Source: Anaerolineae bacterium (GTDB lineage Bacteria; Chloroflexota; Anaerolineae; B4-G1; SLSP01). From it: a DNA stretch of 64,000 nt. Each line of letters starts with the position of its first letter. Position 1 is the stretch's first letter. Positions 16,846-39,136 of this stretch are shown here, piece after piece. The notes under the pieces were generated by a model. The model was given only the letters and a program-made list of their open reading frames with translations, was not told the DNA's origin and made no database searches. The stretch spans positions 80,106-144,105 of the forward strand of contig DAOLUH010000003.1 in the NCBI GenBank assembly GCA_035420085.1, written 5' to 3'. Position numbers and translations under genes: made by a program.

Positions 16846-16849
16846 GGTT

Positions 16850-21637: not shown

Positions 21638-23130
21638 AAGATAAGCAGGCTTTCAACAGTGAGCCGATGTCGTACACACGCCAGGCTCTAGAATTGCGTG
21701 CGGCGGATTACTATGCCAGTATACGTAAGCCGGAGTATGAGTGGAAATCTATCGAGGATTTGATCCCGCAACTTACACAGTTCAGACATCAGGTGTGTGC
21801 GTTAGATTACGAAGGCGCTAGTCAAACTCTCCGGGCAATCGATTATGATTACCTCTACCTTTGGGGGTATTACGCACGACTGATCGACTTACACAGCCAA
21901 TTGTTGGGGAACCTGCAAACTCCTCGTCTGGTGATGGATAACCTCGTTGGTCTGGGACGTGTTTGTCGCGCTACCGGCAAATTTACTCAGGCAGTTACAT
22001 ACTACGAAAAGGCTTTGGATGTTGGCGGCACAATCGATGACTCATATAGAAAAAGTGTGCTGTTTGGCCACTTGGGTAGCGTGTATCGTGCTTTGGGCAA
22101 GATCAAACAGGCTATTGAGTTCTACGAGCAGGCTTTAACACTGGCCCTGGAGGTCGCGGATCGCCGTTTACAATGTGATCAACTTGGACACCTGGGGATG
22201 TGTTACCGAAGTCTCGGCGCAATGCACCAAGGTATCCAGTATCATCAGCAGGCTCTCGCCATTGCGCGGGAGATCGGCAATCGTGCTCTGGAAGGTGCCA
22301 ACCTGAGTAGCCTTGGCAGCGCTATGCGCGCGATCGGTAAAATCGAGGAATCTTTGATTTACTACCGACAGGCTCTAGATATTGCGCGACAAACCCGCGA
22401 CCGGCGTGTTGAGGGCTTTGCTTTATCCAGTATGGGCGGTGCGTATCGAGCCTTGGGCGACATCAACTATGCTATTGAATGTTACAGGCAGGCGCTTGAA
22501 ATAGCGCGTGAAACCGGTTATCGCCAAGGAGAGGCGATAGACCTGGGCGACATAGCCAGTGTTTACTACACGTTAGGCAAATATGACCAGGCGCTAGAGT
22601 TGTATGAGCAAGCTCTCAAGATCAGTAGTGAGATAGGGGACTCCCGGCAAGTTGGATATCATCTCGTTGGCCTTGGCAAAACCTGGTTGGCAATGGGACC
22701 CTATTCCAGAGCCATCGACTGTTTTAGGCAATCACTCGACGTGGGCTTACCGGATTCAGCTTACCGTGCGGCATTGGGATTGGCTGTGACCTATCTGACA
22801 CTTGGAAAACCTGAAGCTGCAGCCGCGTTTGGGGACGCGATAGTCCGTAGTAGAGTGCTATTGGATAAAACCCAGGATAATTACCGGGCGTTATATGCAC
22901 TTGCTACTGCCAAGGTAGGCGTTGCCATCTGCGACCCACTTTGGAACAATGTCCGTAGACGCGCCGATCTTCTAGCCCCTGCATTGGATAAGTATCGGCG
23001 GGCTTTGGAAATCACCGCTATGCCTGGTGTTGTACGGGATGCCTTGCGCGACCTCGAACTCATCCGCGCTGTTGGCGTTGAGGGCCTGGAACCAGTGTTT
23101 GCACTCCTGGAAGGGGGATTGAATGGATAG
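21634..23130 (+). CDS. TPR-repeat protein, paralog 3 of 5
   Basis: 498 aa. 'YTRQALELRAADYYASIRKPEYEWKSIEDLIPQLTQFRHQ' ... 'ITAMPGVVRDALRDLELIRAVGVEGLEPVFALLEGGL'. Start overlaps the NTPase stop. Confidence 0.85.
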   Translation: MKDKQAFNSEPMSYTRQALELRAADYYASIRKPEYEWKSIEDLIPQLTQFRHQVCALDYEGASQTLRAIDYDYLYLWGYYARLIDLHSQLLGNLQTPRLVMDNLVGLGRVCRATGKFTQAVTYYEKALDVGGTIDDSYRKSVLFGHLGSVYRALGKIKQAIEFYEQALTLALEVADRRLQCDQLGHLGMCYRSLGAMHQGIQYHQQALAIAREIGNRALEGANLSSLGSAMRAIGKIEESLIYYRQALDIARQTRDRRVEGFALSSMGGAYRALGDINYAIECYRQALEIARETGYRQGEAIDLGDIASVYYTLGKYDQALELYEQALKISSEIGDSRQVGYHLVGLGKTWLAMGPYSRAIDCFRQSLDVGLPDSAYRAALGLAVTYLTLGKPEAAAAFGDAIVRSRVLLDKTQDNYRALYALATAKVGVAICDPLWNNVRRRADLLAPALDKYRRALEITAMPGVVRDALRDLELIRAVGVEGLEPVFALLEGGLNG

Positions 23131-24844
23131 TCCCGATCCTTACAATCGCCGTAACCTGGAACTGCGAGTAGCGGAATACTACGCCAGTATTCGCAAGCCA
23201 GAGAGCGAGTGGAAGACGATTGAGGATTTGACCGCACTATTATCGGAAGTCGAACATCGTTTCTGTGGCGGTGACTGTGATGGCATGGCCAGGTTGCTGG
23301 ATTTGATTGATGTTGATTACTTATTCTTATGGGGATATCATCATCACTTGATTAGACTGCGCGAACAACTGATCAATTGTCACATCGAACCACGTTTGCA
23401 GGTTCAGAACTTAGGTCGATTGGGACGCATAGCGCACAGCATAGGGCGATTCAATCGAGCAATCGAATATCATCAACAGGCCTTGCGTATTATCGAGGAT
23501 GCCGGTTTGGATGACAATGTGGAAAAATGCAAACATCTGGGTTATCTCGGTACCAATTATCACTTCCAGGGCCAGGCTGGAAAAGCGATTGATTACTATC
23601 AGAGGGCGTTAGCCCTTGCCCGCAGTGTACACGACCGTGGCTTTGAAAGTATCTGGTTGGGCTATTTGGGATACGCTTATCGTATTATCGGAGAGTTGGA
23701 TCAGTCGGTCACTTGCTTGGAACGTGCCTTGCAGATCGCGCGGGTGATAGGTGACCGTCGGGAGGAGCAGCGTCATCTTGGCAACCTGGGTAGCACTTAC
23801 TATGATTTAGGAGAAACGGAAAAGGCCCTAACCTACTATCGTGACGCCGTTGCCATTGCACAAGAACTTGGCTATCGGCGGTATGTTGGAATCTGGCAAG
23901 GGGCTTTGGGTGAAGTGTATCGGGACCTGAGGTATTTAGATCAAGCGATTCGGGTGTGTCAAGAGTCTCTGGCTATAGCTCGAGAGGTTGATGACAGATG
24001 GAGTGAAACCCTCTGGTTACGATCATTAGGTAATGCTTACTATAATGTGGGGCAGTTCGAAGAAGCTATCCGTGTTGCCAACCAGGGGCTTGCGATCGCG
24101 CAGCAGATTGGCGATCGGGTATCAGAAGGCGGACATCTGGGTATCTTGTGCAGAACATATCTGTCGCTTGGATTCAATGATCAAGCATTTGAGTATGGTC
24201 AAAATGCGTTAACCGTGACTCGAAGCACGCATGAACCTCGGAATATGTGTGTTCGACTTTGCGATTTCGGGGCTGTCTGTTTCAGCCTTGAGCAACTCGA
24301 ACTTGCGCTTCAGCATTATACGCAAGCTTTAATCCTCGCCCGTGAGGGAGGTGAACCCTATAAGGTGAGTTATTGCTTGTTGGGAATGGCGAGAGTTTTG
24401 CTTGGTGAAGGGCGCTACAGCGAAGCCGAACCGTACAGTCGCGAAGCTTGCACATTGGATGTGCCAGCAACTAAACATCAAGCAGCTCTAGGTTTGGCCT
24501 TTTCACATCTCTATCAATGCAGTATATCGGCTGTGGAAAGTTTCACGGATGCAATTGCAGAATGTCAGACTATCCTGAATAAAACGCCAACGTTATATAA
24601 GACCCGTTACGTCTTGGCGACTGCGATGGTGGGGCAAGCCGTATGTCACTCAAGATGGGGAAATATTGGCGAAAAGAGAACGTTGTTGGTTCCCGCTCTC
24701 GTCGAATATCGCCGCGCGCTGGACATCACATCTGCCCCTGGCGTCGTGCGTGACGCCCTCCGCGACCTGGAACTCATACGTGCTGCCGGTGTCGAGGGTT
24801 TGGAGCCGGCATTTGAACTGCTGGAAGGTGCGTTGAATGAGTAG
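23123..24844 (+). CDS. TPR-repeat protein, paralog 4 of 5
   Basis: 573 aa. 'YNRRNLELRVAEYYASIRKPESEWKTIEDL' ... 'ITSAPGVVRDALRDLELIRAAGVEGLEPAFELLEGAL'. 8-nt overlap with paralog 3. Confidence 0.85.
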   Translation: MDSPDPYNRRNLELRVAEYYASIRKPESEWKTIEDLTALLSEVEHRFCGGDCDGMARLLDLIDVDYLFLWGYHHHLIRLREQLINCHIEPRLQVQNLGRLGRIAHSIGRFNRAIEYHQQALRIIEDAGLDDNVEKCKHLGYLGTNYHFQGQAGKAIDYYQRALALARSVHDRGFESIWLGYLGYAYRIIGELDQSVTCLERALQIARVIGDRREEQRHLGNLGSTYYDLGETEKALTYYRDAVAIAQELGYRRYVGIWQGALGEVYRDLRYLDQAIRVCQESLAIAREVDDRWSETLWLRSLGNAYYNVGQFEEAIRVANQGLAIAQQIGDRVSEGGHLGILCRTYLSLGFNDQAFEYGQNALTVTRSTHEPRNMCVRLCDFGAVCFSLEQLELALQHYTQALILAREGGEPYKVSYCLLGMARVLLGEGRYSEAEPYSREACTLDVPATKHQAALGLAFSHLYQCSISAVESFTDAIAECQTILNKTPTLYKTRYVLATAMVGQAVCHSRWGNIGEKRTLLVPALVEYRRALDITSAPGVVRDALRDLELIRAAGVEGLEPAFELLEGALNE

Positions 24845-26468
24845 CACTTATCCCTACACTCGCCGCGCTATGGAGTTACGAGCAGCGGAATACTATGCCA
24901 GCATCCGCAAACCGGAACAAGAATGGCGATCTATTGAAGATTTGACTCCCCAATTGACAGAGTTTGAGCATCGCGTTCAGGGTGGAGACCATGACGCCGC
25001 GTGTATACTTCTCAATTGGATTGACTATGAGTATCTGTTTCGCTGGGGAAATTACAACTGGCTGCTGCAATTGCGGAAGCAGTTGAATGGTCGCTTACAC
25101 GATGTACTTCTTCAGGCGATGAATCAGGATGGATTAGGTTTCGTGCTCCTGGCACTGGGGCAAATCCGGGAAGCCATTGCGTTGCACGAGGACAGCTTGG
25201 CCCTTGCCGAACAAATAGGGGATCCGCAATTGGTCTGCCAGGTCTTGAATCATTTAGGAACTGCCTATCGCGATCTGGGGGAAGCAACCAGGGCGATTCG
25301 ATTGTATGAGGAAGCACTAAAGATAGCGCAAGACCTGTACTTTCGAGATCGTGAAGGGACGATTCTTGGAAACTTGGGGAACGCTTATCACAACTTGGGG
25401 GATTTTGAGCAGGCAATTGGGTTCTATGGGCAAAGTCTGTCCATTTACCGTGAGTTAGGTAATCGCCGCAGGGAAGGGGCAGAATTAAGTAACTTGGCCA
25501 ATACATACCGGGCAATGAAACAGTGTCATACAGCTTTGCGACATTACGAAACAGCGTTGGCTATCGCTCAGGAGATCAATGACGCGCTGTCTGAAAGCGA
25601 AACGTTAGGGGGCTTGGGCGTCGTATACCGTGAGTTAGGACAGTTTGAGTCGGCGCGCGATCTCTCTGAAAAGGCCCTGGCGATTGCCCGAGCTATCTCG
25701 GCTCGACGTTACGAAGGATTGAACCTGGGCCGCTTGGGTATCATCAATCAGTGCCTTGGGCAATATGCAACAGCACAAGCATACTATGCACAGGCACATT
25801 CCATCGCGTCGGAGATCGAGGATGTGCGCTATGTACGTGCTTGGTCGCATTATCTGGGAACTCTGTACCGTGCCTTGGGAGATTTTGACAAAGCAGTTGT
25901 CCATCACCGGCAAGCATTACCTGAAGGATACGAGGGTGAAGACAGGTCAGGGAAGGGTATCCATCTGCTGGGTCTAGGCAAAGCTCTGCTTGCACAGGGC
26001 CAGTTCGCGGAAGCCCGGTTGTGCTTTGAAGAAGCTTACACGCACAACACAGCCATCCGACATCAGGTACGGTTGATGCAAGGTGTGACTTGTCTGCATA
26101 TTCGGCATACGGCGTGCGCTGAATATTTTCGCACCGCTGTTGACCACTGTCGCGAAATGCTGCAAGCGGGGGACCTATATGAGACTCACTATACCCTGGC
26201 CATTTCTCTGGTTGGTCAGGCTGTCTGTGATCCACATTGGGATGACGCCACTCAACGCGCTGATCTCCTTGCCCTTGCGTTGACCGAGTATCGGCGCGCC
26301 TTGGGAATCACTGCTGCCCCTGGCGTTGTACGCGATGCTTTGCGCGACCTTGAACTCATCCGTGCTGCCGGCGTTGAGGGTGTGGAACCGGCGTTCGCGT
26401 TGTTGGAGCAGGCGCTCAAACGTGACACGCCTGCTACCAAGGGTGGTTCTGATCTCAGCACAGTGTAA
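24837..26468 (+). CDS. TPR-repeat protein, paralog 5 of 5
   Basis: 543 aa. 'YTRRAMELRAAEYYASIRKPEQEWRSIEDL' ... 'ITAAPGVVRDALRDLELIRAAGVEGVEPAFALLEQAL'. 8-nt overlap with paralog 4. Confidence 0.85.
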   Translation: MSSTYPYTRRAMELRAAEYYASIRKPEQEWRSIEDLTPQLTEFEHRVQGGDHDAACILLNWIDYEYLFRWGNYNWLLQLRKQLNGRLHDVLLQAMNQDGLGFVLLALGQIREAIALHEDSLALAEQIGDPQLVCQVLNHLGTAYRDLGEATRAIRLYEEALKIAQDLYFRDREGTILGNLGNAYHNLGDFEQAIGFYGQSLSIYRELGNRRREGAELSNLANTYRAMKQCHTALRHYETALAIAQEINDALSESETLGGLGVVYRELGQFESARDLSEKALAIARAISARRYEGLNLGRLGIINQCLGQYATAQAYYAQAHSIASEIEDVRYVRAWSHYLGTLYRALGDFDKAVVHHRQALPEGYEGEDRSGKGIHLLGLGKALLAQGQFAEARLCFEEAYTHNTAIRHQVRLMQGVTCLHIRHTACAEYFRTAVDHCREMLQAGDLYETHYTLAISLVGQAVCDPHWDDATQRADLLALALTEYRRALGITAAPGVVRDALRDLELIRAAGVEGVEPAFALLEQALKRDTPATKGGSDLSTV

Positions 26469-26522: not shown

Positions 26523-29500
26523 TTATCCACCCCCCACAATCATCTCCAACTCCGTATCCGCCGGCGGCACAATCCCTGAAATGTCCACGAACTGTACCGG
26601 GAAGATTTCCATTTCACTTTCCTGGCTCAACGTCTTGCGCGTGCGGCGCACATAGCCCACCCCCGTAGGCATATTGAGCACGCTCAGCGTCCACTTGGAA
26701 TAGTCGTCGAGGCTTGTCTTTCCCGGCAAGCGCCCGGCCTTCGACACCGCGATTTCAGCATCTTTCACCGTACTCACCTTCTGGATAATCGCAATACTAC
26801 TGGAAGTCACCACGCCGGATGGCAACGGCTCCCAATGCTGCGCCGACGTCCACAGGTACAGGCCCAGCTTGCGTCCCCGGTCGGTGATGTTGTTCCACAG
26901 GCCCGCATCCTCGCCAATGGCCTGGGCGATCTCCGTTTGGGACGAGGCATCCGAGCGCATCACCACGTGGGCTTCTTCGACGAAAAGCAAGTGCTGCGGA
27001 ATGGGCCGGCCTTGACGTAAGTAATGCTCATAGCGTTCGTCCGCGTGCTGGTAGATGCCGGACACCATCAAGCCAATGATAAACTGCTTCAACGGCCCGT
27101 CATCGCCGAACTTCCCCGTAATCACCGTCGCTTTGTCCGGGGCCGTCCACTCGGTGACCGTCGTGCCGCCTGGCTGCCCGAAGGCGCGCCAGTACACCCC
27201 CTTCGGCAAGAACTCTTCCAGCTTGTCGATGATGCGCTTGACCACGCCGGCGGTGATTGTGTCGCTGCGGTCGGCGCTGAGTGCGGCGAAGCGGGAAACC
27301 AGGGCCTTGTGCAAGTCCTCCATACACAGATTCGCCGAACGGTCCAGGTACACCCTGCCGTCCTCCTCGATGACGCCCGCCGCGCGGTAAGCGTCCAGCA
27401 CTGCGCCCTTGAGCTGGTGGAAGCCGGTTGCCCCGGCGGGGTACGCCAGCAGCCAATGTTTGGCGAACGCCGCCGCCCACTTCGCCGGGTGCAAGTACGG
27501 GCTAGGGATGCGCAAGGGGTTGAATTGCAGAAGGGGCAAGGCAATGCCCGTAGCACCCGTTGGACTGTCAAAGGTCTCGACAGCACTGCCTTGCCCGTAC
27601 AGGGAATAATATTGGAGGTCCTTTGATGGAATCAGCAAGCCCAACTTACGCCATTCCCCCGTGGGATCGAAGACCGTCACCCCGATGCGCGGCGTTCCAC
27701 CTGCCGCGCCGGTCCGCACCGGCCCGGTGATGGGGGCAGAGATCGGGATGCCGTGCTCATCTTGCCGCAATGTGTTGACCACCTGCGAGACAAACCACAG
27801 CGCGGAGTTGGACTTGCCGGAGCCGGAATCCCCGACGATGACGGCGTGCATCAGTTCGTCGGCGCGGAAGCGATGGACGTTGTTGGGATCAGGCTGCAAG
27901 TTGACGTCCAACACCGTGCCCAACGCGATTTCCCCTTGGGTGCGGCGATGCGACAGGTCTTCCGGCCAGGCGTCCAGCGAGGCCGAAATCGTGCCGTCCG
28001 AGATGCGAATCGGGTGGACGAGCGCCGATAACTCGTTGGCCGTCAGGGTTTGCGCGTGGCGCAGCGTGTCGAACGGCCCGGCGTCTTCCGCACGCTCGTC
28101 GAAGTCCAGGGTAATGGCCCGTTGCCACAAGGTCTCGTCCCCCGCGCGCGCCGCGACAGGCACGACGACGTTCTCCTCGCGCATCGCCGCAATGGACGCC
28201 GCAGCCAACCGTTCCAGCCGAGATTCGTCAGGAGCCAGCAGCGTCACCTGCGTCAGGAACAGCCCAGTATCCAGCCCTGCGCTCAAGCGGCGTACCTGCT
28301 GGTCAAGCAACTGCGCCACCAGGTCACGCTGTGTGTCCACGATCTGCCGCCCGAAGGCCAGGCCCGCCACCAGCGAACCGCCGGATGGCCCCATCACGCC
28401 GCGTGTCGTCACCTGGGTACGGCCCGCGTTGGCGACCGTTGCCCCGACCTGTTCGGCGGCCTGGGCTTGCACATACTCGCGCCCTTCGCCGATCATCGCC
28501 TCTTGCCGCGCTTCGGCCCCGTCGATCTGCTCTTGTGAGTCACGGTAACCATCAAAGGTCTCGCTGCGGAAGCCGTTGACCACGCGGTTGGTCTCGCGTT
28601 GCAGCGCGCGGTCGGCGACGATCACATCTTGCTGCGAGAGATGCCCGCTACGCTGCCCGGTCTCGGCATAGCTGCCGCTAAAGGTACGGGCGAAGTGCTC
28701 GACGCCTTGATAGCCATCGCGGGTGGCCTGCTGCCAGGCAGTGTCTTGATCCACGGCACTCTCCCAGGCGCGCTGCGCTTCGCGGTCGGTGTGACTGGCA
28801 TCCTGGTAGGCTTCGCTGTAGCCATAAGCCACTTGACTGCTTCGTACCCCGCCCCCACTGCGCCATTCCGCCGTCTGCACCGTCTCATTGCCCTGCCAGG
28901 TCTGACCCAGCGCCTCCTGCTGGTTGCCGCTGCGTTCGTAGGCATTGTCCGACTGCTCGAAGCCTGCTGTGACCGTGCTTTGCTGCGTGTCGCGGGTGGT
29001 GTCCAGGTTACCCTCAGCCTGCGCGATTTCGTGGTCGCGGGATTCGTACATATTGCCACGCTCTCCGGCCTCCATTGTTTCACCCCCGCCGATGCCGAAG
29101 ATGCGCGGGGCCAGGTTGCCTTCCACGCCTTGATCAGCGTAGGTCTGCATCTGCGCTCCGTCACCCTGCACGTTACTTTCGGTGCTGCGGTCGAAGCCCT
29201 CGCTGCTGTACACGCTGCTGGCTCCGGTTTCGGACTGCTGGTAGCCGCCCTCGCTGTGTTCGTTGCCCGCCCCGCTGAACGACCGCTCGGTCTGTTCGTT
29301 GTAGCCGCCTTCCCAGGCACGGCTGCTGCCCCCGCTGTAGCGTTCCCCGACGCTGAAGTTTTCCACGGATGAACGGCTACCTGCCCCGGAGCGCACGCCG
29401 GAAACCCGCTCATTGATGCTCTCGGCGCTGTGCAGATTGCCGGTCTCATCGGTGTGCTGCTGGCGGTTGCCCTGCTGCGTGGCATCGCGCGCACCCTGGG

Positions 29501-30539
29501 TTTGCACCACACCGGCTTCGCTGCCGCTATACGAGCGGGACAAGGAATAACGGTCGGCATAGTCGCGTTCCAGGCTGACCTGCGCTTCTTCGTGCTCGTT
29601 CACCTGTTCACTCACGTGCTGCTTCTCGTAGTAGCCGGTGTTCTCCTGGCCTTGATGCGCCTCGTGGCTCGCGGTCTCACGGCGGTAGGCGCTGACGCTG
29701 TCGGACTGCCCGGCGGCCAGGCGATGGGCGTTCTGCTCGGTGCGCAAGCTTTGGTCGGCCCGCGTCACCTGGGTGGCACGATGGGTCTGTTCGCTGAACA
29801 CCGCCACCGGATTGAGGAACAGGGGCAGCACCGCACTCACATTGGCCGACTCGCTCTGCTTGACCTTGGAGGCGAAGTAGCTCAGGGCTTGGGCAGTGTC
29901 GGTCAGCATCCGCCGGATGTCCAGCGCGTGCAAGGGGTGTGCCAGGGTCAGGACGGCGAACGGCTCCCCGGCCAGCGCGGCGGCGATGACCTCGAGCTGC
30001 TCTTGCGCATCGGTGGTCACCAGTTGGTTGATGCCGTGCCCTGACCCCATCCCGGGTGCAAGGCGCGGCACCATCTGGCCGATGAGGGACGCGGTGTAGT
30101 GACAATCCCACAGATGCCGGTACAGCGCCGCGGCTTCGTCGCCGGATAGCAGCGTAAAGCGCGACTGCCGGAAGCGCCCTTGCAACGCCGCGACCAGACG
30201 TGCCGAGTTGAGCGCAGCCGCTTGCACGGCCTTTTCCTGAGTCTCTGCCGTTGCCAGCCCGCCGTAGACCTGAACGAGGCCCAATTCGGGCACATTGGCC
30301 AGGCCAAAGGCGGCGGCGGTGTTGCGCGCACCTTGTGGATCGTACAGGCTGCTCACCACGTCGTCGGTGAGTTCCAGGTGCGTCCGCGCGTGGCGATAGG
30401 GCTTGCGCAGGATGCGCAGCGCGTGCGGCGACCACGCCCGCCAGCCGTCGGGCAAGGCCCAGGCATAGGCGTGCAAGGATGCGCCGTCGGGGGTCAGGGT
30501 CATTGAGAAAGTGTTGGTGTTGGTGTTTGTGTTGTTCAT
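26523..30539 (-). CDS. 1338-aa HerA/FtsK-superfamily (DUF87-like) P-loop ATPase with a unique N-domain and a ~440-aa low-complexity disordered linker
   Basis: AAGGAGA RBS before ATG at 30539. C-terminal half: 'GEIALGTVLDVNL...ELMHAVIVGDSGSGKSNSALWF' (HAS-barrel-like segment + Walker A) and 'QHLLFVEEAHVVM' (HerA-type Walker B hhhhEEAH). Residues ~260-700 are a Q/S/E/G/Y/R-rich region with no recognisable fold. Confidence 0.7.
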   Translation of the reverse strand: MNNTNTNTNTFSMTLTPDGASLHAYAWALPDGWRAWSPHALRILRKPYRHARTHLELTDDVVSSLYDPQGARNTAAAFGLANVPELGLVQVYGGLATAETQEKAVQAAALNSARLVAALQGRFRQSRFTLLSGDEAAALYRHLWDCHYTASLIGQMVPRLAPGMGSGHGINQLVTTDAQEQLEVIAAALAGEPFAVLTLAHPLHALDIRRMLTDTAQALSYFASKVKQSESANVSAVLPLFLNPVAVFSEQTHRATQVTRADQSLRTEQNAHRLAAGQSDSVSAYRRETASHEAHQGQENTGYYEKQHVSEQVNEHEEAQVSLERDYADRYSLSRSYSGSEAGVVQTQGARDATQQGNRQQHTDETGNLHSAESINERVSGVRSGAGSRSSVENFSVGERYSGGSSRAWEGGYNEQTERSFSGAGNEHSEGGYQQSETGASSVYSSEGFDRSTESNVQGDGAQMQTYADQGVEGNLAPRIFGIGGGETMEAGERGNMYESRDHEIAQAEGNLDTTRDTQQSTVTAGFEQSDNAYERSGNQQEALGQTWQGNETVQTAEWRSGGGVRSSQVAYGYSEAYQDASHTDREAQRAWESAVDQDTAWQQATRDGYQGVEHFARTFSGSYAETGQRSGHLSQQDVIVADRALQRETNRVVNGFRSETFDGYRDSQEQIDGAEARQEAMIGEGREYVQAQAAEQVGATVANAGRTQVTTRGVMGPSGGSLVAGLAFGRQIVDTQRDLVAQLLDQQVRRLSAGLDTGLFLTQVTLLAPDESRLERLAAASIAAMREENVVVPVAARAGDETLWQRAITLDFDERAEDAGPFDTLRHAQTLTANELSALVHPIRISDGTISASLDAWPEDLSHRRTQGEIALGTVLDVNLQPDPNNVHRFRADELMHAVIVGDSGSGKSNSALWFVSQVVNTLRQDEHGIPISAPITGPVRTGAAGGTPRIGVTVFDPTGEWRKLGLLIPSKDLQYYSLYGQGSAVETFDSPTGATGIALPLLQFNPLRIPSPYLHPAKWAAAFAKHWLLAYPAGATGFHQLKGAVLDAYRAAGVIEEDGRVYLDRSANLCMEDLHKALVSRFAALSADRSDTITAGVVKRIIDKLEEFLPKGVYWRAFGQPGGTTVTEWTAPDKATVITGKFGDDGPLKQFIIGLMVSGIYQHADERYEHYLRQGRPIPQHLLFVEEAHVVMRSDASSQTEIAQAIGEDAGLWNNITDRGRKLGLYLWTSAQHWEPLPSGVVTSSSIAIIQKVSTVKDAEIAVSKAGRLPGKTSLDDYSKWTLSVLNMPTGVGYVRRTRKTLSQESEMEIFPVQFVDISGIVPPADTELEMIVGGG

Positions 30540-30556: not shown

Positions 30557-30614
30557 GGTAGACGGTAGACAGTAGACGGGTTTTCTTTCCCTGTCTACCG
30601 TATTCCGTCTACTG
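30557..30614. repeat. GTAGACNG word hairpin between the 4-TM gene and the HerA-like gene
   Basis: GGTAGACGGTAGACAGTAGACGGG ... CCCTGTCTACCGTATTCCGTCTACTG. A related GTAGATGGTAGACGGCAGACAGTAGAC lies at 34544-34570, upstream of the kinase gene. Confidence 0.6.
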
Positions 30615-31007
30615 ACGCTTAATCTGTTGAATAACATCCCGGCTTGCCATCCGCCCACCGAAGAACGGCGTACTGCGGTCCCAGAACAGGAAGCGCAAGA
30701 TGTAGGCATAGAAGCCGATGGCCGACATCACGGCGAAGCCCAGCAGCCACACTGAAATGCCGTAGAGCGTCGTCGCGCCTGGCTCCGGCGTGCCGCTGAC
30801 CAGCAATGCAGCGATGCGGTAGGCAAAGAGCAAGCCGGCGTTGCCCGCGAGGAAGAAGTAGATGTAGTTCGTGGTCGCCGCGCGGTCATCGGGCTTGAAG
30901 TAGGCCAGCGCCAGCGCCGCGCCCCACATTGGGGCCAAGACCCAGCGCAGTGCGCCAGGGGCCAGGACGAGGGCCAGGGTGTGTAAGGCCAAGATCAAAT
31001 ATGGCAT
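30609..31007 (-). CDS. small 4-TM membrane protein
   Basis: Track ORF 30609..31160, trimmed to ATG at 31007 (AGGAGG RBS): MPYLILALHTLALVLAPGALRWVLAPMWGAALALAYF... Four hydrophobic helices. No homology recognised. Confidence 0.55.
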   Translation of the reverse strand: MPYLILALHTLALVLAPGALRWVLAPMWGAALALAYFKPDDRAATTNYIYFFLAGNAGLLFAYRIAALLVSGTPEPGATTLYGISVWLLGFAVMSAIGFYAYILRFLFWDRSTPFFGGRMASRDVIQQIKRQ

Positions 31008-31107
31008 TGTGTGTTTCCTCCTATCTATAAATATGTACGTTTCGACAGAGTTTTCAGGATAGTGCATCTTTTCAACCTGTTCAACCTGTCGATCCTGTCC
31101 AAGAAAA

Positions 31108-31265
31108 CGAAAAAGGGGAGGACGCGGGATTGATCCCGTGTCCTCCCCTTTTATTCTCATCTCGGTGTTACGCGGTCAGAGCGCCGCAGGCTTGGAGGTT
31201 CCTGCGGTTTGGAGCCGAAGCCCCGGACTTTTGCGCCTGGAGGGTGATGCTGTATCCAGGTTTAT
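31108..31265 (-). ncRNA. candidate ~155-nt structured 5' leader or sRNA (copy 2), homologous to 16692-16845
   Basis: Minus-strand RNA hairpins: CCTGGA-tacagcatcaccc-TCCAGG, GGGGC-ttcg-GCTCC and CCGCAGG-aacctccaag-CCTGCGG, then CGCTCTGAC. Terminator GGGGAGGACrCGGGAT-caa-TCCCGCGTCCTCCCC followed by TTTTT (plus 31109-31148). Lies ~100 nt upstream of the 4-TM gene. Confidence 0.45.
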
Positions 31266-31269
31266 ATCT

Positions 31270-31299
31270 ATTATACCATATTCATACCTTGAATTTCAA
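31270..31299 (-). promoter_or_regulatory. sigma70-type promoter of leader copy 2
   Basis: Minus strand reads CCCCCCTTGAAA (-35, plus coordinates 31294-31299), an 18-nt spacer, then TGgTATAAT (extended -10; TATAAT = 31270-31275). Confidence 0.45.
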
Positions 31300-31372: not shown

Positions 31373-34300
31373 TTACTTTCGCTCTTTGACGATTTGCTGT
31401 AACCATTTCCGGCGCTGTTCGAACGCTGATTTGAGATGAGAGGGCACATACTGTGCAATACTTTGCTCTACTAATGTCATAAACCCAGGGCTACGCATCA
31501 ATGGAAACTGTGCCACCGCACGTCGCATTGCCGGTAACGAGTCAGTAGCCTGAAATGCTTGGAACGCTTGTTTTGTCTCTGTTAAGGCCTCTTGCTTCTG
31601 GGATTCTATCTTTTGGAGTTCTACCATAAATTGTTCTGCCTGTTGTCGATTAGGGCTACCGATTTGCTTCCAGAGAAGCGCTGCCTTTTGCGCCAGAGGA
31701 ATTGCACGGGTTATGTCATCTTGTTGTACGTAAAGTCGTGCCATGTTGAAGGAAAAGTGTGCTACACCGTCATTATCTCCGGCTTCACGCAAGATTACCA
31801 ATGCCTGCTCATAATACTCAACAGCGCGTCGTGTGTTACCCAAATTTGCATACGCATTTCCCAGATTACCCAAAGCATTTCCCTCGTCACGCCGCTCACC
31901 AATCTTCCGGGCAACCTCATAATATTTTTCGTAAAATGCGATGGCGTTTTGTGTGTTTCCCAAGGCAGCATAGGCCACCCCCAGACTTCCCAAGGCGTTC
32001 ATTTCTTTGTACGGATCGCTGGCCTTGCGAGCAATCTCCAACTGTTGACTGTAGTAGCTAATGGCGCTGTGTGGATCATCTGAGTCAACGTGGGTAATCC
32101 CAGGATCTGCATCTTGGGCGGCTTGCGTCCTGATCTGTGCCAAAATTTCACGCACAAGGAGCGTGTGCCCATGGTCCATTTCTGCCGTAAGGATGGCCTC
32201 ATTTCGTTCTCCGGTCCAAATGCGGCGGATAGGAGCAATGATATTCCACCCGTTCTGCTCGATGTGTGGGAATGCTTCTTCCACTGCCGCACGGGCTTGG
32301 CGGTCGCCTCGTGCTGCTGCAGCTATAGCCTGAATAAGCGGTGTAAAGCTCTCGATAAGTTCCACATCTGCTCTGATCTGAGTATCAAGTTCTACAACGA
32401 GTTGTTGCGCAATCTGCGCACTTGGACTGCCGATTTGTGTCCAAATCTGAGCAGCTTCCTGCGCCAAAGGTAATGCTTGTGTCATTTTCCCTTGTTCTGT
32501 GTATAAGCGGGCAATATTGAATGACTGTCTTGCCACACCGTCAATATCGCCAATCTCACGGGCAATGGTAAGTGCTTGACTGTAGAGTTCATTAGCACGG
32601 CGAGTCTCTCCCAATCTAGCGTAGGCTGCTCCCAGGTTGCCCACGGCTCTTCCTTCTCCACGTCGGTTGCCGATCTCACGCCAGATTGTTAAAGCCTGTT
32701 CAGTAAAGCTGATGTCACGGTGCGCATCACCCAGAAGCCCATACGCTACTCCCAAATTGGTTAGGTCATTCCCTTCTCCATACCGATCGCCGATCTCGCG
32801 ACGGATGACTAGTGCTTGCTCATAATACTTAATCGCTTGACGTGTATCCCCTAAATCTTTGTAGGCAATACCTAAGTTACCTAAAGTAATTACTTCTTCA
32901 ATCCGATGACCGAGTTCACGTTGAATCGTCAATGCCTGTTCGTAATACTGGATAGCACGGTTGGCATCTCCTAGATTTTTATAAGCCACTCCCAGATTCC
33001 CCAGAACATCGCTCTCCCCTATCTTATGACCAAGTTTACGGTCAATGATCAATGCCTGCTCGTAATATTGGATCGCCTTTCTCAGATCACCCAGGTTCTT
33101 GTGCGCAACTCCCAGGTTGTTCAGTACGGTACTTTCACCAAGTGCATCATTCATGTCACGGGTTATAACCAAGGCTTGTTCATAATATCCGATGGCGCGA
33201 TGAGTGTCACCCAATTGCTGATAAGCTCCCCCCAAACCTAAAAGCGCCTGTGCTGAATACAAATTTTCTGACTGCAAAATTGCAATTGCGCGTTCAAAAT
33301 AGCTTATAGCCACTTCCACTTTACCAATATCCAAGTAAGCTATTCCAATGACACTATACGATGAGGCAATTTGTAACAGTTCTTCGCGGATCAACACAGT
33401 CGCATCGGCAGGCGGCGGCGCGGGGCGTTCGGCTATAGTGGCATACGCAGACGCCAGAGCAAATTCAAGGCTCTCCCAATCCGCGTAACGGTCGCCTGGA
33501 TTGAGCGCAAGGCAACGGCGTAGAATATAACGCACCGGCGCGGGGATGCTCTCAGGCAGCGGGCGCAAGTTGCCGGTGCGATGAGCATATTCCAACGCTT
33601 CCCAACTCTCAATAGGCGCTGCGGTATAGCCGGTGAACATCTCGTAGAGGATGCAGCCAAGCGCGTACGCATCCGTATAGACGCCCACGGGCGCGCCCTG
33701 CCATTGTTCCGGGGACATATACAGCTTCGTACCAGCGCCCTGTGTAAATTGTGCCTGTCCCACATCTACTTTGTCTATCTTGTTAGAATGTGTTATGGAT
33801 GCATTTGTTTCAACTATTTTGGCTAACCCAAAATCAGTCACGCGCAGCCGGTTGATCTGCGTATCCGGCAAATGATCCGCGCCTACCAGCACATTTTCCG
33901 GCTTGAGATCGCGGTGGACGAAGCCGGGGATGCGCGCGACAGCGTGCTGCATCCCGCGCGTGATTTGTAACGCGAAGAGCAGCGCCGTCTCCGGCGGCAG
34001 TGGACGCCCCCCGGCTTGCCCTGAGCCATATCGAAGGGGTAACCATGAACGCAGCGAGGCGTCTTCACGCTCTTGCCCTTTGGCAATCAGTTCCAGCGCC
34101 AGGTAGACTTCCAGGCCGGTGGTGTCACGGATAACCTCATAGCATCGCACGATGTGCGGATGCGCGCCCAGGTTCATCCAGGTGGTACCTTCGCGCAGGA
34201 ACCGGTCGCGGGTGGCCCGGTCGGGCAAGTATTCCGGCTTGAAGGTTTTGAGCGCCACGGGCAAGTCTTGCTGTTGATCCCGGCAGATATAGACGATGCC

Positions 34301-34525
34301 CATGCCGCCCATCAGCGGGTCGCCGACGACTTCGTAACGTCCGAGGATTGTGTCGCCGGAGCGGTAGACTTTCTGCACCGATTGGGATGCGATTCCCGGG
34401 GCCGGAGACGCAGGTGGGGGCGCAGGCGGCGCGACGGGAGGGGCAGTGCGCGGCGCAGCGGTCTGTGATGGCTTTGCCGGTTCTGGTTCGCCTTTTTGGC
34501 CTAACAGCTTTTTGAAAAAACTCAT
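31373..34525 (-). CDS. Ser/Thr protein kinase fused to a long TPR array
   Basis: 1050 aa. Pro-rich N-terminus. Hanks kinase motifs 'GGMGIVYICRD', 'VALKTFKPEY', 'HRDLKPENVLV', 'DFGLAK', 'SPEQ'. Then ~15 TPR units of the form YEQAL.I.REIGDR..EG..L.NLG.AY. A sharp G+C drop near 33400 coincides with the kinase/TPR boundary. Confidence 0.85.
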   Translation of the reverse strand: MSFFKKLLGQKGEPEPAKPSQTAAPRTAPPVAPPAPPPASPAPGIASQSVQKVYRSGDTILGRYEVVGDPLMGGMGIVYICRDQQQDLPVALKTFKPEYLPDRATRDRFLREGTTWMNLGAHPHIVRCYEVIRDTTGLEVYLALELIAKGQEREDASLRSWLPLRYGSGQAGGRPLPPETALLFALQITRGMQHAVARIPGFVHRDLKPENVLVGADHLPDTQINRLRVTDFGLAKIVETNASITHSNKIDKVDVGQAQFTQGAGTKLYMSPEQWQGAPVGVYTDAYALGCILYEMFTGYTAAPIESWEALEYAHRTGNLRPLPESIPAPVRYILRRCLALNPGDRYADWESLEFALASAYATIAERPAPPPADATVLIREELLQIASSYSVIGIAYLDIGKVEVAISYFERAIAILQSENLYSAQALLGLGGAYQQLGDTHRAIGYYEQALVITRDMNDALGESTVLNNLGVAHKNLGDLRKAIQYYEQALIIDRKLGHKIGESDVLGNLGVAYKNLGDANRAIQYYEQALTIQRELGHRIEEVITLGNLGIAYKDLGDTRQAIKYYEQALVIRREIGDRYGEGNDLTNLGVAYGLLGDAHRDISFTEQALTIWREIGNRRGEGRAVGNLGAAYARLGETRRANELYSQALTIAREIGDIDGVARQSFNIARLYTEQGKMTQALPLAQEAAQIWTQIGSPSAQIAQQLVVELDTQIRADVELIESFTPLIQAIAAAARGDRQARAAVEEAFPHIEQNGWNIIAPIRRIWTGERNEAILTAEMDHGHTLLVREILAQIRTQAAQDADPGITHVDSDDPHSAISYYSQQLEIARKASDPYKEMNALGSLGVAYAALGNTQNAIAFYEKYYEVARKIGERRDEGNALGNLGNAYANLGNTRRAVEYYEQALVILREAGDNDGVAHFSFNMARLYVQQDDITRAIPLAQKAALLWKQIGSPNRQQAEQFMVELQKIESQKQEALTETKQAFQAFQATDSLPAMRRAVAQFPLMRSPGFMTLVEQSIAQYVPSHLKSAFEQRRKWLQQIVKERK

Positions 34526-34794: not shown

Positions 34795-37700
34795 TATTTT
34801 TAAAACTACAAATGGGCTAGAATAAGTTGAGGTGGGGGCGTTGTGTATCTGAGCTACCTAATCTATCCGATTTTGGAGGGTGAGCTCAAGAATCACGCTA
34901 ATCTCTGCTCCAAGATATCCGCAATCCAGAATAATCGAATTCCCTCGACTCCCGGATAGATTTTTTCCAGGCGTTGAGTATATTCAACAATACCCTCTAG
35001 CTCAAGTTTAAATGTGCTACCACCCTCACTTGGCCGGACTTGGTCATAGGCCTCAAGTAAAGCTTCAACGGCTATACGTAACTTATCCCGCTTCTGTTGT
35101 TCTTCTTCTGACAATGCATTGAATTTGTTAAGCAATGCTGCAGCCGTATCAAAGAACATCTGGAGAGCCGTACTCAATGCTTTTGAAACATCGCCACTGA
35201 TATATGCCTGCAATCTCTCCCTGCCAGGTTCAGTTGGCTCCGGCATTGCTTGAAATTCACTGATTTGGGAAGTGAGTTGGCGCAGTGTGTTAACAGACTC
35301 AGAAAGCTGATTGGCTAAAGTAATATCTGCCGAATCCCATACGTCGAGTTGCAATTCTTCCCTAATGGTATCGGGCAATTCTTGAGAAAAGTAGGCCCAT
35401 GGTTTTTCCTGGATAGTGTCCCCCTGTAGAATAGTGATTGTGTACAGAGGCCAAACCAACTCGTTCAACATTTTCCCACCAACAACAGGGATAACGACGA
35501 TGTACTCACACGTATCCTGAATCAGATAATAGACCAAGCTCTCGAAATCTATAATACCCAGAGTCTCACGCAACGCTGCGGGAAACTGTTGAAGTATTTG
35601 CGTGTAGAGTTCTGTTGGATCCCGCAGGTCAAATCTGACCCATAGGGGAGGCCGACCTTGCCAACGGTGCTCAATATCAAGATAAGTGGCAGTACAAGTT
35701 GGCGATTGTACTGTTGTCAAGGCTTGCTGGATTTGTGAAATCAGTTGGTTTTGTGCCATACGCACCCAGTGAGCTACCTGTATTAGGGGATTTGCAGCCC
35801 CTTTCCAGGGTTCATAGGCATAGAAATACCACAGCATCCAAGCCGTTGTAAGTTCCTCATGTTCGCGTTGTTCCAGTGTGGTTATCAGACTTACATCAAG
35901 TAATTGGCCAAACAATGCGCGGAATTGTTGTTGATAGGTTGTGATTCTGGTCCTAGCATCGAAAAGATTGAGCACCGGCAGATGCGGATTAGTCTTTACC
36001 CCTTTGTCCTGTAGTTCTTTGAGGACAGTAGCTTTTCGTGGATCGTCAGGATGTAGTTTCCCGATATTGAAATCTGTCACCCATATATCTGGAGCTTGAC
36101 CGACAAAGTTGCGCATTGAGCCAAAGTAATCCCGCTGCGCCTCGAGATATGCCTTATACTTCTGAAGCGCAATGGCAGTCGGAACATAAGCCTTATTCTT
36201 CTGAGATGTCGTATTTGGGCCAGAACCTTGCTGGGAAAGAGTTTGTAAAAAGGAAACCGTTGCACTCTCACTGGCGAAACCCCACGGGTCAACTGATGAT
36301 TTAGGTAAATCCAATGTGCTTCCCAACATATCCCAACAGCGTTGCCATACCTGCAGGTCGATATACTTTTGACCAATGCTGAGTGCTTTGTCTCGTTGGT
36401 AGAATTTAACTAGCCCTCGATTAAGTTGCGTTATGCAATTGACAATCAATTGTCGGATTTCTATGATGGTGTCAAGATAGGCTTTCCAACTCTCAGGTCG
36501 ATAAAAGTAGCGCGCCAAGCCACTGGCGATGCTATTCAACCAAGGTGACCATTTTGGCGGCAGGTAGTTCACAGATACACCGTCTTTGCGGGTACTGTCA
36601 CCCTGGGGGAGTTCGATACCTGCGGGTTTGAAACCATATCCCTGCGCAGCATAATGTTCAAAATTGGGAAATAATCTTCGGATCAGGTCAATCTTCGTCA
36701 TTGTCTCATTGTGTAGTCGATCCGTACTGTCCCCAGATGCTTCTCCTATGGGAATAAAGTGAGTCTTGAGTGTTGTGCCTACCTTTTCCAAAGCAAGAAT
36801 ATTGGATTCATGAGCTAGGCGGCGGTGAATGGTTGGCGTATGCGTCTCCAGCCACATTTGGTGACGCTGTGGGTTATACAAATGAAGTGCCAACGACAAA
36901 TCTGCAAGCATTGTGAGGGATAATTCTTCAGAGACAACATCCAGTTCTGCAGCAGAGAGCCATTCGCCAATTGGATGTCGCGATACTAACCGGCCAGCCC
37001 AATACAAAACCTCCGCAACATCTCGCCATATCTCAGGCGTGGAAGGCATTGTTGGGCCTTGATCTAGTTTCTCAAACCAAGCAATCGCCCGCTGGAAAAC
37101 GGAGTCTTTTGACGTCTGGCTTTGACGGATTGCCCTGATTTGAGTTTGTTGCTCTGAAGAGATAAGTTCTCCTAGTTTTGTCCACCATTCACCTACTTCC
37201 GGACCTTCACCCGGTGGCGAGAAATTGAAATCTACTACCGCCCACCACGCCGGGCCAAGAACTTTGTAAGCGGCTTCCGTCGCGGCACAGTTGGTCACTA
37301 CGTAATCATTCACACCAGCCCATAATAAACATCGCAAGACACCGGCGATACATGACCAGGTGTGAGGTTTGAGCGTCATTACAAAGTTGAGAAGCCGCTC
37401 GGAGTCTGCGGGACGTTCCACCAAAGCGTGGAGGATGAATGTTTCCAGGTCTCCTTCAAACATCAACGGCAGTACCTGGGTTGCGATTTCTATCCACGGA
37501 TTTAGGTCAGGCTTGACCAATAATTCGCTAAGAAGACTTGAACGAATTGGATGCAGTCCTTCAAGATAGAATCCATCTGCACTGCGTCGCAGTAGATACT
37601 CCTTCTCAAATTGTGTTAATGTGCGATCCGGACTAGGTAATTTCAAATTGTCAATCAAATCGCGTGTACTCAAGCGTGCACCATAGGCGGAGGCTACAGA

Positions 37701-39136
37701 TACCAGGCACAACAATCGAAGTTCATCAGCAGATGCTCCCATTCGTATATCTTCTTGGATACGTTGGATCTGTCCTTGCAAACGTTGGCGTAACGTCTGG
37801 GTTTGCGTCAGCAGATAGACAAACTCCATCAGTGGTCCTGGAGCTTCGAACTGATCCCAAGCGGCATCAAAATCCAAGAAATCCCAGTGCTCAACCGCGC
37901 TCCTGGCACGTTCGTAGATCAGTTGAGCTTCCTGTTCATTAAAATCCAATTCCACATCGGCAAAATTCAGTCCGGCACCGGCGATATTGGCCCGACGATA
38001 ATCTTCTTCACGCACCGTCACCAATATCTCAAGGTATGGTTGTTGCGTCAGGCGTTTGACCAATTCTGTCCATTCATAATCCTGGGGATGGACATCCACA
38101 TACACTGCCATAGGGACCTGGACAGCACTGGCAAAGCCAGAGAGTGCCAACGCAATACTCAGTGCGTGTTCCACATCCTGCACCCGTTTGACAACAAAAC
38201 GCCACTTTTCGGGATAAGTGTCATGCAGATAGCGATATGCCAGGGTACTCTTACCCTGCCCCGACGCAGCATGAACGATAACCACATTGTTCTGCTGGAA
38301 CGCGCGTGTGATTTCCGCCATTTTATGCTCGCGACGGAAATCGAGTCCCGCGACGATGTGTTCATATCGAGCCTGGACGCCAGCGTAAAACTCATCGTGG
38401 AGCTTTGCGAAGTGTTCATCGGTAATGTGGGCGGTCTCAAGTGGCTCAATCGTAGTATACCATTGCTGATGGTAGTTATACTGTTCAGCGAGAAAATGGC
38501 CCACAGTATTAATCTTATCAATTAGCTCCACGCAAGTGACAGTCTGGCGCTGCTCCGCCAACCGGTAATACCAGGCAACAAATAGGTCAAAGGCGTTTTG
38601 CGGATCAATACCAGTGGACAGACTCTGAATTTGAGAAAGAACTGCTTCCCTTTCTTGGTTTGCGTCTAGCGATACAAGCTGCACGTGGTCAAAGAACTCC
38701 TCAACGTCGGTTTTCTGAAAGCCTTTTTCTGTCAGTTTAGTGATGATATGCTTTCTCTGCTTCTCACTTCCTTCCCAAGCCTGCCAAAGTTCAGGACCAA
38801 TTGCGCCAAAATTCACCAACTTGATGATCGGGGGGATCACTGCACGCAGTAAGTTACTCACACGATGAAAAAAAGAATCTGCCTTTTCTGGTTCGAGGTC
38901 TGATAACGCCAAACTGGAATACGACTTAACTTGTACGACCTCTACCAATTGTCCTGTCTGATCCTGGATATCTAAGTCTTCCTTGCCCTCTGGACAGAAA
39001 ATTTGGGTTCCATCTGCAGCAGACGCAAAGATGCGCCTGAGAGCGTAGAGTGCTTGGAGTCTATAGCCTTGTAGGGCTGCTGGTGCGCCGGGTTGTGTCA
39101 TTTATGATACCTCCACCTATCCTATGAGCTTACCCC
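34776..39136. mobile_element. putative inserted low-G+C single-gene cassette bounded by the 9-bp direct repeat GCTTACCCC
   Basis: GCTTACCCC occurs at 34776-34784 and 39128-39136. G+C is visibly lower between the copies than in both flanks. The two copies sit in the same codon phase (..R G K..) of the NTase gene and of the downstream remnant. No integrase, transposase or terminal inverted repeats were seen. Confidence 0.45.
34893..39101 (-). CDS. 1402-aa Avs-like defence protein: N-terminal Cap4/DUF4297-type PD-(D/E)xK nuclease + P-loop NTPase + ~1000-aa helical C-terminal region
   Basis: 'LQGYRLQALYALRRIF....IFCPEGKEDLDIQDQTGQLVEVVQVKSY' fits the DUF4297 / Cap4 nuclease pattern (GF.YQ..., E..EDhdh, QVK). 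Walker A 'VVIVHAASGQGKSTLAYRYL' lies near residue 285. The rest is a long helical region with no repeats recognised. GGAGGT RBS. Low G+C. Confidence 0.65.
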   Translation of the reverse strand: MTQPGAPAALQGYRLQALYALRRIFASAADGTQIFCPEGKEDLDIQDQTGQLVEVVQVKSYSSLALSDLEPEKADSFFHRVSNLLRAVIPPIIKLVNFGAIGPELWQAWEGSEKQRKHIITKLTEKGFQKTDVEEFFDHVQLVSLDANQEREAVLSQIQSLSTGIDPQNAFDLFVAWYYRLAEQRQTVTCVELIDKINTVGHFLAEQYNYHQQWYTTIEPLETAHITDEHFAKLHDEFYAGVQARYEHIVAGLDFRREHKMAEITRAFQQNNVVIVHAASGQGKSTLAYRYLHDTYPEKWRFVVKRVQDVEHALSIALALSGFASAVQVPMAVYVDVHPQDYEWTELVKRLTQQPYLEILVTVREEDYRRANIAGAGLNFADVELDFNEQEAQLIYERARSAVEHWDFLDFDAAWDQFEAPGPLMEFVYLLTQTQTLRQRLQGQIQRIQEDIRMGASADELRLLCLVSVASAYGARLSTRDLIDNLKLPSPDRTLTQFEKEYLLRRSADGFYLEGLHPIRSSLLSELLVKPDLNPWIEIATQVLPLMFEGDLETFILHALVERPADSERLLNFVMTLKPHTWSCIAGVLRCLLWAGVNDYVVTNCAATEAAYKVLGPAWWAVVDFNFSPPGEGPEVGEWWTKLGELISSEQQTQIRAIRQSQTSKDSVFQRAIAWFEKLDQGPTMPSTPEIWRDVAEVLYWAGRLVSRHPIGEWLSAAELDVVSEELSLTMLADLSLALHLYNPQRHQMWLETHTPTIHRRLAHESNILALEKVGTTLKTHFIPIGEASGDSTDRLHNETMTKIDLIRRLFPNFEHYAAQGYGFKPAGIELPQGDSTRKDGVSVNYLPPKWSPWLNSIASGLARYFYRPESWKAYLDTIIEIRQLIVNCITQLNRGLVKFYQRDKALSIGQKYIDLQVWQRCWDMLGSTLDLPKSSVDPWGFASESATVSFLQTLSQQGSGPNTTSQKNKAYVPTAIALQKYKAYLEAQRDYFGSMRNFVGQAPDIWVTDFNIGKLHPDDPRKATVLKELQDKGVKTNPHLPVLNLFDARTRITTYQQQFRALFGQLLDVSLITTLEQREHEELTTAWMLWYFYAYEPWKGAANPLIQVAHWVRMAQNQLISQIQQALTTVQSPTCTATYLDIEHRWQGRPPLWVRFDLRDPTELYTQILQQFPAALRETLGIIDFESLVYYLIQDTCEYIVVIPVVGGKMLNELVWPLYTITILQGDTIQEKPWAYFSQELPDTIREELQLDVWDSADITLANQLSESVNTLRQLTSQISEFQAMPEPTEPGRERLQAYISGDVSKALSTALQMFFDTAAALLNKFNALSEEEQQKRDKLRIAVEALLEAYDQVRPSEGGSTFKLELEGIVEYTQRLEKIYPGVEGIRLFWIADILEQRLA

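Follow-up and report, generated by a model that had tools for sequence, protein, structure and literature searches.

What connects a Tad-type pilus operon with an operon for a large, uncharacterised ATPase, when both are preceded by the same stretch of non-coding DNA? The case arises in an Anaerolineae bacterium (GCA_035420085.1), where we analysed 64,000 nt of contig DAOLUH010000003.1 (80,106-144,105 of the forward strand; hereafter the window). An initial annotation had placed one promoter/leader/terminator unit directly 5' of both operons and read it as the mark of a shared regulon. We asked whether the unit is real, how widely it occurs, which genes it precedes and how it might act.

Anatomy of the two leader copies

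The unit is present twice on the minus strand, at 31110-31299 (copy 2) and 16694-16877 (copy 1), and lies directly 5' of the two operons as proposed. Each copy has a near-consensus sigma-70 promoter, followed by four hairpins in series (P1-P4) and a 19-20-bp GC-rich intrinsic terminator with 5-6 U residues, so laid out as to specify a leader RNA of ~155 nt.

31270-31299 (-): copy 2 promoter; -35 TTGAAA at 31294-31299, 18-nt spacer, extended -10 TGGTATAAT at 31270-31278
31110-31263 (-): copy 2 leader RNA, type A; transcription start inferred near 31263
31236-31260 (-): copy 2 hairpin P1
31225-31235 (-): copy 2 J1/2
31211-31224 (-): copy 2 hairpin P2
31184-31207 (-): copy 2 hairpin P3, loop AACCUCCAAG
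31153-31183 (-): copy 2 P4 region, weak
31110-31152 (-): copy 2 terminator and U-tract, AAAAGGGGAGGAC..GUCCUCCCCUUUUU
31043-31100 (-): spacer between the copy 2 terminator and the Shine-Dalgarno sequence, with three GACAGG(A/U)U direct repeats ~10 nt apart
31007 (-): ATG of the '4-TM' gene, after copy 2
16850-16877 (-): copy 1 promoter; -35 TTGATT at 16872-16877, 16-nt spacer, -10 TATAAT at 16850-16857
16694-16843 (-): copy 1 leader RNA, type B, from fold and covariance model
16823-16840 (-): copy 1 hairpin P1
16798-16812 (-): copy 1 hairpin P2
16770-16794 (-): copy 1 hairpin P3, loop AAGCCUUCAAG
16743-16767 (-): copy 1 hairpin P4
16696-16739 (-): copy 1 terminator, 20 bp, with the U-tract reaching 16694
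16668 (-): first ATG after copy 1

The copy 2 promoter matches the consensus at 11/12 positions, carries a C-tract immediately 5' of its -35 element and is the top promoter-like site in 17.5 kb; its type is kept in all type-A copies. That of copy 1 matches at 10/12 positions and is the top promoter-like site of its region. The distance from the end of the U-tract to the first start codon is 102 nt for copy 2 and 25 nt for copy 1. An alignment of the two copies (365 columns) shows 73% identity and long invariant blocks, and a covariance model from their relatives scores copy 2 at 152.9 bits (E ~1e-41) and copy 1 at 158.6 bits (E ~1e-43). A 20-nt core pattern, searched with up to 3 mismatches, has two matches in the window, both exact, against 0.11 expected by chance, and the fold z-scores against shuffled sequence are -6.9 (copy 2) and -6.4 (copy 1). 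A third covariance-model match, at 57294-57333, is a similar terminator only, at a gene end, and the window thus holds two copies. The palindromic leader terminator lies between an upstream A-tract and a downstream U-tract and is therefore bidirectional. The GGAGG and CCTCC motifs in its arms and the segments GTCCTGAC/GCTCTGAC upstream of it are present as first described.

The spacer that follows the copy 2 terminator also holds inverted AUCCUG(U)/CUGUC copies and the conserved GCACTATCC / GCNCTATCC. Its GACAGG(A/U)U repeats, which we take to resemble the CsrA binding consensus, are present in all 4-TM/ATPase-type and lipoprotein-DnaB-type leaders examined (including L001, L011, L018 and L027); alternatively, the motif could be an operator or a further hairpin.

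Judging from its genes, the context is chromosomal and not obviously a mobile element. Genes around the leaders (34893-39101, 31373-34525 and 41853-48550) encode a STAND NTPase, a Ser/Thr kinase with TPR repeats and an AddAB-type helicase-nuclease pair. A CRISPR array occupies 61718-63928 and beyond; its 37-nt repeat GTTTCCATCCCTCAAAGGGTTCAACCGTGGCCCAGAC is present at least 31 times, with spacers of ~37 nt. A short repeat, TCTTGCCTC(T), stands in tandem at 12196-12261 and again 33 kb away at 45325-45355 (94% identical), both times at a gene junction.

Distribution and conservation of the leader

Pattern scans of genome and metagenome collections, together with a covariance model built from 23 copies, recovered ~135 further copies outside the window (~137 instances in all); every one stems from an Anaerolineae/Chloroflexota MAG or from a metagenome of bioreactor, sludge or sediment origin. 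Three MAGs (S1bins155, H66_674 and H67_697) carry at least six copies each, H67_697 having 7-8 when L008 and the truncated L017 are included. In every full copy the next start codon lies 25-170 nt downstream in the same orientation, and this placement just 5' of co-oriented genes speaks more for a leader acting in cis than for a random repeat or an independent sRNA gene. Rfam 15 gave no match at the gathering score in the window or in seven related loci, and at a relaxed threshold (E up to 10) it returned chance-level hairpin matches only. No copy was found on IMG/VR viral contigs, and a phage origin was rejected for that reason. Our literature search found no description of the motif. The leader thus has a clear consensus and is apparently an undescribed cis-regulatory RNA family.

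Several MAGs hold many near-identical copies, and subtype chimeras (L003, L079 and L055) indicate exchange between copies. Both would fit a dispersed, MITE-like mobile repeat carrying promoter and terminator incidentally. We consider such a repeat extremely unlikely, because orientation and distance to the start codon are constant, the ends of the unit coincide with the promoter and the U-tract, and the synteny of copies is retained between MAGs and at protein identities of 40-52%; an unsystematic look noticed neither terminal inverted repeats nor target duplications.

Within the close set, no variation is seen in J1/2 (GAAAAGGUCYG), P2, P3 or the 12 outer base pairs of the terminator stem (AAAGGGGAGGAC/GUCCUCCCCUUU), although for P2 and P3 this partly reflects the patterns used in the search. 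P1, P4 and the inner part of the terminator vary, with compensatory changes. Divergent leaders, reached through protein homologues, have 13-21-bp terminators and lie 5' of the '4-TM' gene (L152, L150, L151, L154 and L147). P3 covaries among them (CCGCAGG/CCUGCGG, CUGCGGG/CCUGCAG, CUGCGGG/CCCGCAG) and P2 is not kept. The P3 loop of distant leaders is AGUUUCGCCG, its sequence not being conserved at that distance. Both P3 and P4 persist down to 40% protein identity.

The two copies in the window belong to different subtypes, A (copy 2) and B (copy 1), distinguished by the promoter spacer, P1, P4 and the inner terminator. Copy 1 hardly differs from mobile-element leaders and is closer to them than to copy 2. 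Subtype follows operon class: type A precedes ATPase operons, and type B precedes Tad and integrase/FtsK operons. The promoter spacer is conserved within each subtype, with an inverted repeat in several type-B promoters (for example ACCATGTCCAGCATGGT or CCATGTCAGGTATGG), and in most close copies a second TATA-like hexamer sits 3-5 nt after the -10 element, around +1 to +6. Together with a predicted short terminated transcript preceding long operons, of which some belong to mobile-element modules, these features would suit a DNA-level unit of the lambda Q kind. Following the logic of PR'-6S RNA-tR', a factor would load at the promoter spacer while the polymerase makes a sigma-dependent pause at the -10-like TATA(G/A/C) element, and the polymerase would then ignore the terminator ~150 nt downstream. 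This reading is quite unlikely in our judgement: a Q-like gene was not found, the distant leaders L147 and L152 lack the second TATA element, and the conservation of P3 with compensatory changes is left unexplained. It also overlaps the explanation favoured below, which likewise involves factor-dependent read-through.

Operons headed by the leader

The genes that follow the two copies in the window are these:

30609-31007 (-): gene labelled '4-TM' in the initial annotation, 132-aa membrane protein, first gene after copy 2; Shine-Dalgarno AGGAGG at ~31017-31022
26523-30539 (-): P-loop ATPase, 1338 aa; Walker A VIVGDSGSGKSN, Walker B LLFVEEAH
5469-16668 (-): Tad-type pilus operon after copy 1
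16066-16668 (-): DUF4352 lipoprotein, first gene of the Tad operon
15334-16065 and 14780-15340 (-): ParA-like genes of the Tad operon
12259-13626 (-): TadZ-like (AAA_31/CbiA)
9102-10496 (-): CpaF/TadA (T2SSE, 6.4e-40)
7341-8261 and 6436-7344 (-): TadB/C (T2SSF in both)
5469-5885 (-): TadE-like pseudopilin (TadE, 1.4e-7)

With a CpaF/TadA, two TadB/C, a TadZ-type ParA and a TadE-like protein, the gene content of 5469-16668 gives the Tad assignment a solid basis. Recombinase-domain ORFs of the serine-recombinase type lie within this operon between TadZ and CpaF (10439-12037, minus strand). Pfam did not detect a catalytic Resolvase domain in them, and part of their sequence is duplicated internally (11001-11252 against 11799-12050, 72% identical); these ORFs may be what is left of an integrase. 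At the distal end, a 1466-aa ORF (1032-5432, minus strand) with 390-nt and 516-nt tandem repeats and no Pfam match is possibly a repetitive surface or adhesin protein.

The name 'HerA-like' given earlier to the ATPase has behind it the Walker A and B motifs, which are invariant in nine homologues, and otherwise only sub-threshold DUF87 matches. Against PF01935 the protein scores 15.8 bits (cutoff 23.2), a DUF87 chain in the PDB matches at E 0.02-0.23, marginal also with a profile, and a match to DptH is likewise sub-threshold. Its homologues form a narrow family, of which P0018 and P0019 (40% identical) have precomputed weak or faint PF01935 matches. The AlphaFold model of the C-terminal domain, at pLDDT 49.6, is too poor for use. 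The 1338-aa protein probably belongs to the HerA/FtsK superfamily.

A functional link between the ATPase and the Tad pilus, suggested at first from the shared leader, was strengthened by other genomes. The leader heads the operon of the '4-TM' gene and the ~1300-aa ATPase in 36 copies including that of the window (35 elsewhere), and the Tad operon starting with the DUF4352 lipoprotein in 30 (29 elsewhere). The two operons are adjacent in L104, with a second leader between them. In L147-L149, L150 and L151, whose ATPases are 40-52% identical to that of the window, the ATPase and Tad genes are contiguous and co-directional, in the order 4-TM, ATPase, DUF4352, ParA-like, (SSB in L147), TadZ, CpaF, TadB/C. 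Orthology in this contiguous cluster was confirmed for three genes; the '4-TM' protein has a 36% identical orthologue in L150 (E 3e-30). One divergent leader with a long terminator stands 5' of the whole cluster in L147, L150 and L151, and in L154 a divergent leader with a terminator stem of ~13 bp likewise precedes the '4-TM' gene. The SSB gene of L147 (11730-12188) lies inside the contiguous cluster, and its presence hints that the cluster handles single-stranded DNA.

In the window, ~9.4 kb of opposite-strand TPR genes separates the two operons. This block of six paralogous TPR-repeat genes (17051-26468, plus strand) is missing in L104, where the operons are adjacent, and it therefore looks like an insertion that split an ancestral cluster. 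Gene order thus indicates that the ATPase and Tad operons are halves of one ancestral cluster, each half now with its own leader, and that the ancestral leader site is the head of a single 4-TM-ATPase-Tad cluster.

The proposal that the leader defines a regulon dedicated to these two operons stood in part when the family was compared: the leader does head both, but it also heads at least six other operon classes, namely those of an FtsK translocase, a serine recombinase, DnaB/AAA_25, a primase-like ORF, Replic_Relax and a type IIG methylase. About 28 copies lie 5' of modules with a small ORF, RHH, DeoR-HTH and large serine recombinase genes or of an FtsK/SpoIIIE translocase module, and ~8 copies precede a lipoprotein-DnaB-AAA_25 module. 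Nine precede a Replic_Relax module, whose Pfam match is at the cut-off (25.8 vs 25.3 bits). The primase-like ORF (two copies) was so called from its N-terminus by eye, and two pairs of copies precede unannotated ORFs. Domain matches in these other operons include FtsK_SpoIIIE (1.2e-31), DnaB (7e-62), Resolvase plus Recombinase in a serine integrase, and AAA_25. Genes for transfer, replication and integration are all present among them, and the set resembles the corresponding modules of FtsK-type integrative elements. Two copies (L020, 4356-4480; L115, 3185-3309) stand directly 5' of the gene for a 1094-aa type IIG MmeI/Eco57I-like methylase; these keep the promoter and P1-P4 and are without the terminator.

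c-di-GMP riboswitches typically sit upstream of Tad operons. The position of copy 1, and a conserved core followed by a terminator, would accordingly suit a metabolite riboswitch with a terminator platform, responding for instance to a second messenger that controls pili. This is very unlikely to be the explanation, since the leader also precedes integrase, replication and methylase operons, has no Rfam match at gathering or relaxed thresholds, and consists of hairpins in series with neither a closed multi-helix junction nor a pairing mutually exclusive with the terminator; furthermore, P2 is dispensable in distant leaders.

The same placement bears on whether the 155-nt terminated RNA is itself the product, that is, whether the copies form a family of trans-acting sRNA genes, acting for example through pairing of the P3 loop (CCUCC/CCUUC) with Shine-Dalgarno sequences. 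The downstream operons would then be expressed from other promoters or by incidental read-through. Each copy combines a strong promoter with a very strong terminator, whose long stem should terminate efficiently, single genomes hold several copies, and P3 exposes an anti-SD-like loop. Nevertheless, the position of the copies is not gene-independent, each being co-oriented and 25-170 nt 5' of a start codon, the subtype follows the downstream operon class, and distant leaders do not keep the sequence of the P3 loop. No space for a separate promoter remains where the leader precedes Tad-type or FtsK/integrase-type operons, since there the U-tract and the start codon are ~25-30 nt apart. We therefore regard an sRNA family as a fairly unlikely reading, although a dual role, with the terminated leader also acting in trans, is conceivable.

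Proposed attenuation at the leader terminator and comparison with known systems

How might the leader be overcome? The segments GTCCTGAC/GCTCTGAC had been proposed to pair with AGGAC of the terminator arm as an antiterminator, and this idea failed. The segment forms the 5' arm of P4, a hairpin in which compensatory changes are seen, and the GUCCU-AGGAC pairing would comprise only 4-5 bp. Truncated and constrained folds gave no conserved antiterminator, and folds that forbid the terminator were 24-29 kcal/mol worse than the terminator. An SD/anti-SD role of the stem, also raised at first, gained no support beyond the sequence itself. A leader peptide was rejected, as an AUG before the terminator is missing in about half of the copies.

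Two other pairings were noted. Across lineages, the P3 loop (CCUCC/CCUUC; GUUUC in L150/L151) could pair with the terminator 5' arm (GGAGG; GAGAC). The match is suggestive; independent cases are too few, and the close set shows no covariation. In 50 type-B leaders, 89% of cells would allow J1/2 GGUCUGG to pair with the 5' arm of P4, as an alternative to P4 (alignment A4 columns 34-40 with 85-91; in copy 1 ~16810-16816 with 16759-16765). This helix shows one-sided, wobble-compatible changes only and is not conserved at distance, and no link to termination was found for it.

A terminator scan of window positions 1-35000 found a long stem only at the copy 1 leader terminator (the copy 2 stem was seen by folding and is not listed in the scan); other terminator-like sites were at or below the shuffle expectation. 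With no strong internal terminator in either operon, the leader terminator would be the single barrier to transcription. Such a barrier might need no regulator: a strong promoter followed by a leaky, bidirectional terminator could simply keep long or costly operons at a low, constant level and block read-in and antisense transcription, with neither factor nor signal. This would fit the palindromic, bidirectional terminator and the failure to find an alternative structure, and mobile elements use insulating terminators according to PMC11658703. An unregulated device of this type is still unlikely, because it leaves unexplained the invariance of ~60 nt (J1/2, P2, P3 and outer terminator) across operon classes while neighbouring helices drift, as well as the persistence of P3 and P4 at 40% protein identity. 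Since no competing fold was found and an invariant core lies beside covarying P1, P4 and inner terminator, a trans-acting factor is the most likely means of control.

We therefore favour a cis-acting attenuation module that keeps the operon off by default, with factor-dependent read-through of the terminator and a DNA-transfer-related regulon, a reading to which we give about an even chance. The strong, near-consensus promoter would fire into the ~155-nt leader, which is predicted to fold into P1-P4 and to end in the unusually long 19-20-bp GC-rich terminator, 25-170 nt before the start codon. By default most transcripts would end there as a short RNA, and the operon would be expressed only when RNA polymerase reads through. 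The putative trans-acting factor would recognise the invariant core, the outer terminator stem or both, either as an RNA-binding antiterminator or as a polymerase-modifying factor. Among the partly annotated neighbour genes, no PRD, ANTAR or similar gene was seen beside any copy. In the lineage of the window the ancestral cluster would have been split, each half having a leader, and the module would have spread to FtsK-type transfer, replication and integration operons; together, the leader-headed operons would form one attenuation-level regulon, apparently related to DNA transfer.

In B. subtilis, conAn processive antitermination is resisted by stems >14 bp (PMC10325885), and if that limit generalises a 19-20-bp terminator would be hard to override. 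The long stem may also be nothing special, as the organism has a long-stem terminator at the ordinary gene end at 57294-57333. Given the terminator-less L020 and L115, the leader may act apart from termination as well.

More speculatively, the leader could be the recognition element of a dedicated antitermination factor that co-activates the chromosomal cluster of Tad-like pilus and HerA-like ATPase (with an SSB in one relative) and the FtsK, DnaB, primase, Replic_Relax and serine recombinase modules of integrative elements. The Tad/ATPase cluster would then be part of an unrecognised, conjugation-like DNA-transfer apparatus of filamentous Chloroflexota under a new attenuation mechanism. To this extended version we attach little weight.

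The family is restricted to a class that has been little studied, is largely uncultured and dominates anaerobic digesters. For the ~1300-aa orphan ATPase, which belongs with Tad pilus genes, it provides a functional lead, and a leader common to the ATPase and to FtsK-, integrase- and replication-type operons points to DNA transfer. A very long terminator that would keep the operon off by default, its invariant outer stem and the lack of an internal antiterminator together predict that an antitermination factor acts in trans; the RNA could be used as bait for it.

Four known systems invite comparison. In lambda PR'-6S RNA-tR', a strong promoter yields a short transcript that is terminated by default, and Q makes the polymerase ignore the terminator. 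The present unit is similar in its strong promoter, its 150-200 nt terminated RNA ahead of a long operon, its early -10-like element and, as we infer here, its dependence on a factor that makes the polymerase ignore the terminator. It differs in lacking an identified Q homologue, in its RNA hairpins P3 and P4, which are conserved with compensatory changes, and in occurring as many copies per genome, on chromosomal and mobile-element operons, with none in IMG/VR.

RAT/terminator leaders are bound by antiterminator proteins of the BglG/LicT type. As in those leaders, conservation here reaches the terminator 5' arm, as expected if a protein blocks the hairpin, but no RAT-like alternative hairpin was found.

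EAR is a cis-acting antiterminator RNA, as is the put RNA of HK022 (PMC9378689). The likeness lies in promoter-proximal hairpins repeated at several operon heads, which could act on the polymerase in cis. Unlike put and EAR, the present leader has no Rfam match, loses P2 at distance and includes the terminator itself in the conserved unit; unlike these and conAn2, it precedes operons with no further internal terminators that would require processivity. A processivity protein (ConAn1 or a LoaP/NusG paralogue) was not seen among the partly annotated neighbour genes.

The leader of the pLS20 conjugation operon combines a zipper-type attenuator, cATT, with conAn antitermination (PMC13401043, PMC8191782). 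Both systems place an intrinsic terminator at the head of long mobile-element DNA-transfer operons and suggest control at the level of attenuation. In the pLS20 zipper, however, an upstream segment complements the terminator and no such stable alternative exists here; conAn fails on stems >14 bp (PMC10325885) and the stem here has 19-20 bp; and the two leaders, from Bacillota and Chloroflexota, share no sequence similarity. With no model match, no zipper or RAT fold, no associated protein seen and no internal terminators, the leader does not qualify as a member of the lambda Q, pLS20, put or RAT systems, and it is best filed as a new family of promoter-proximal terminator leaders with a probably factor-dependent mechanism.
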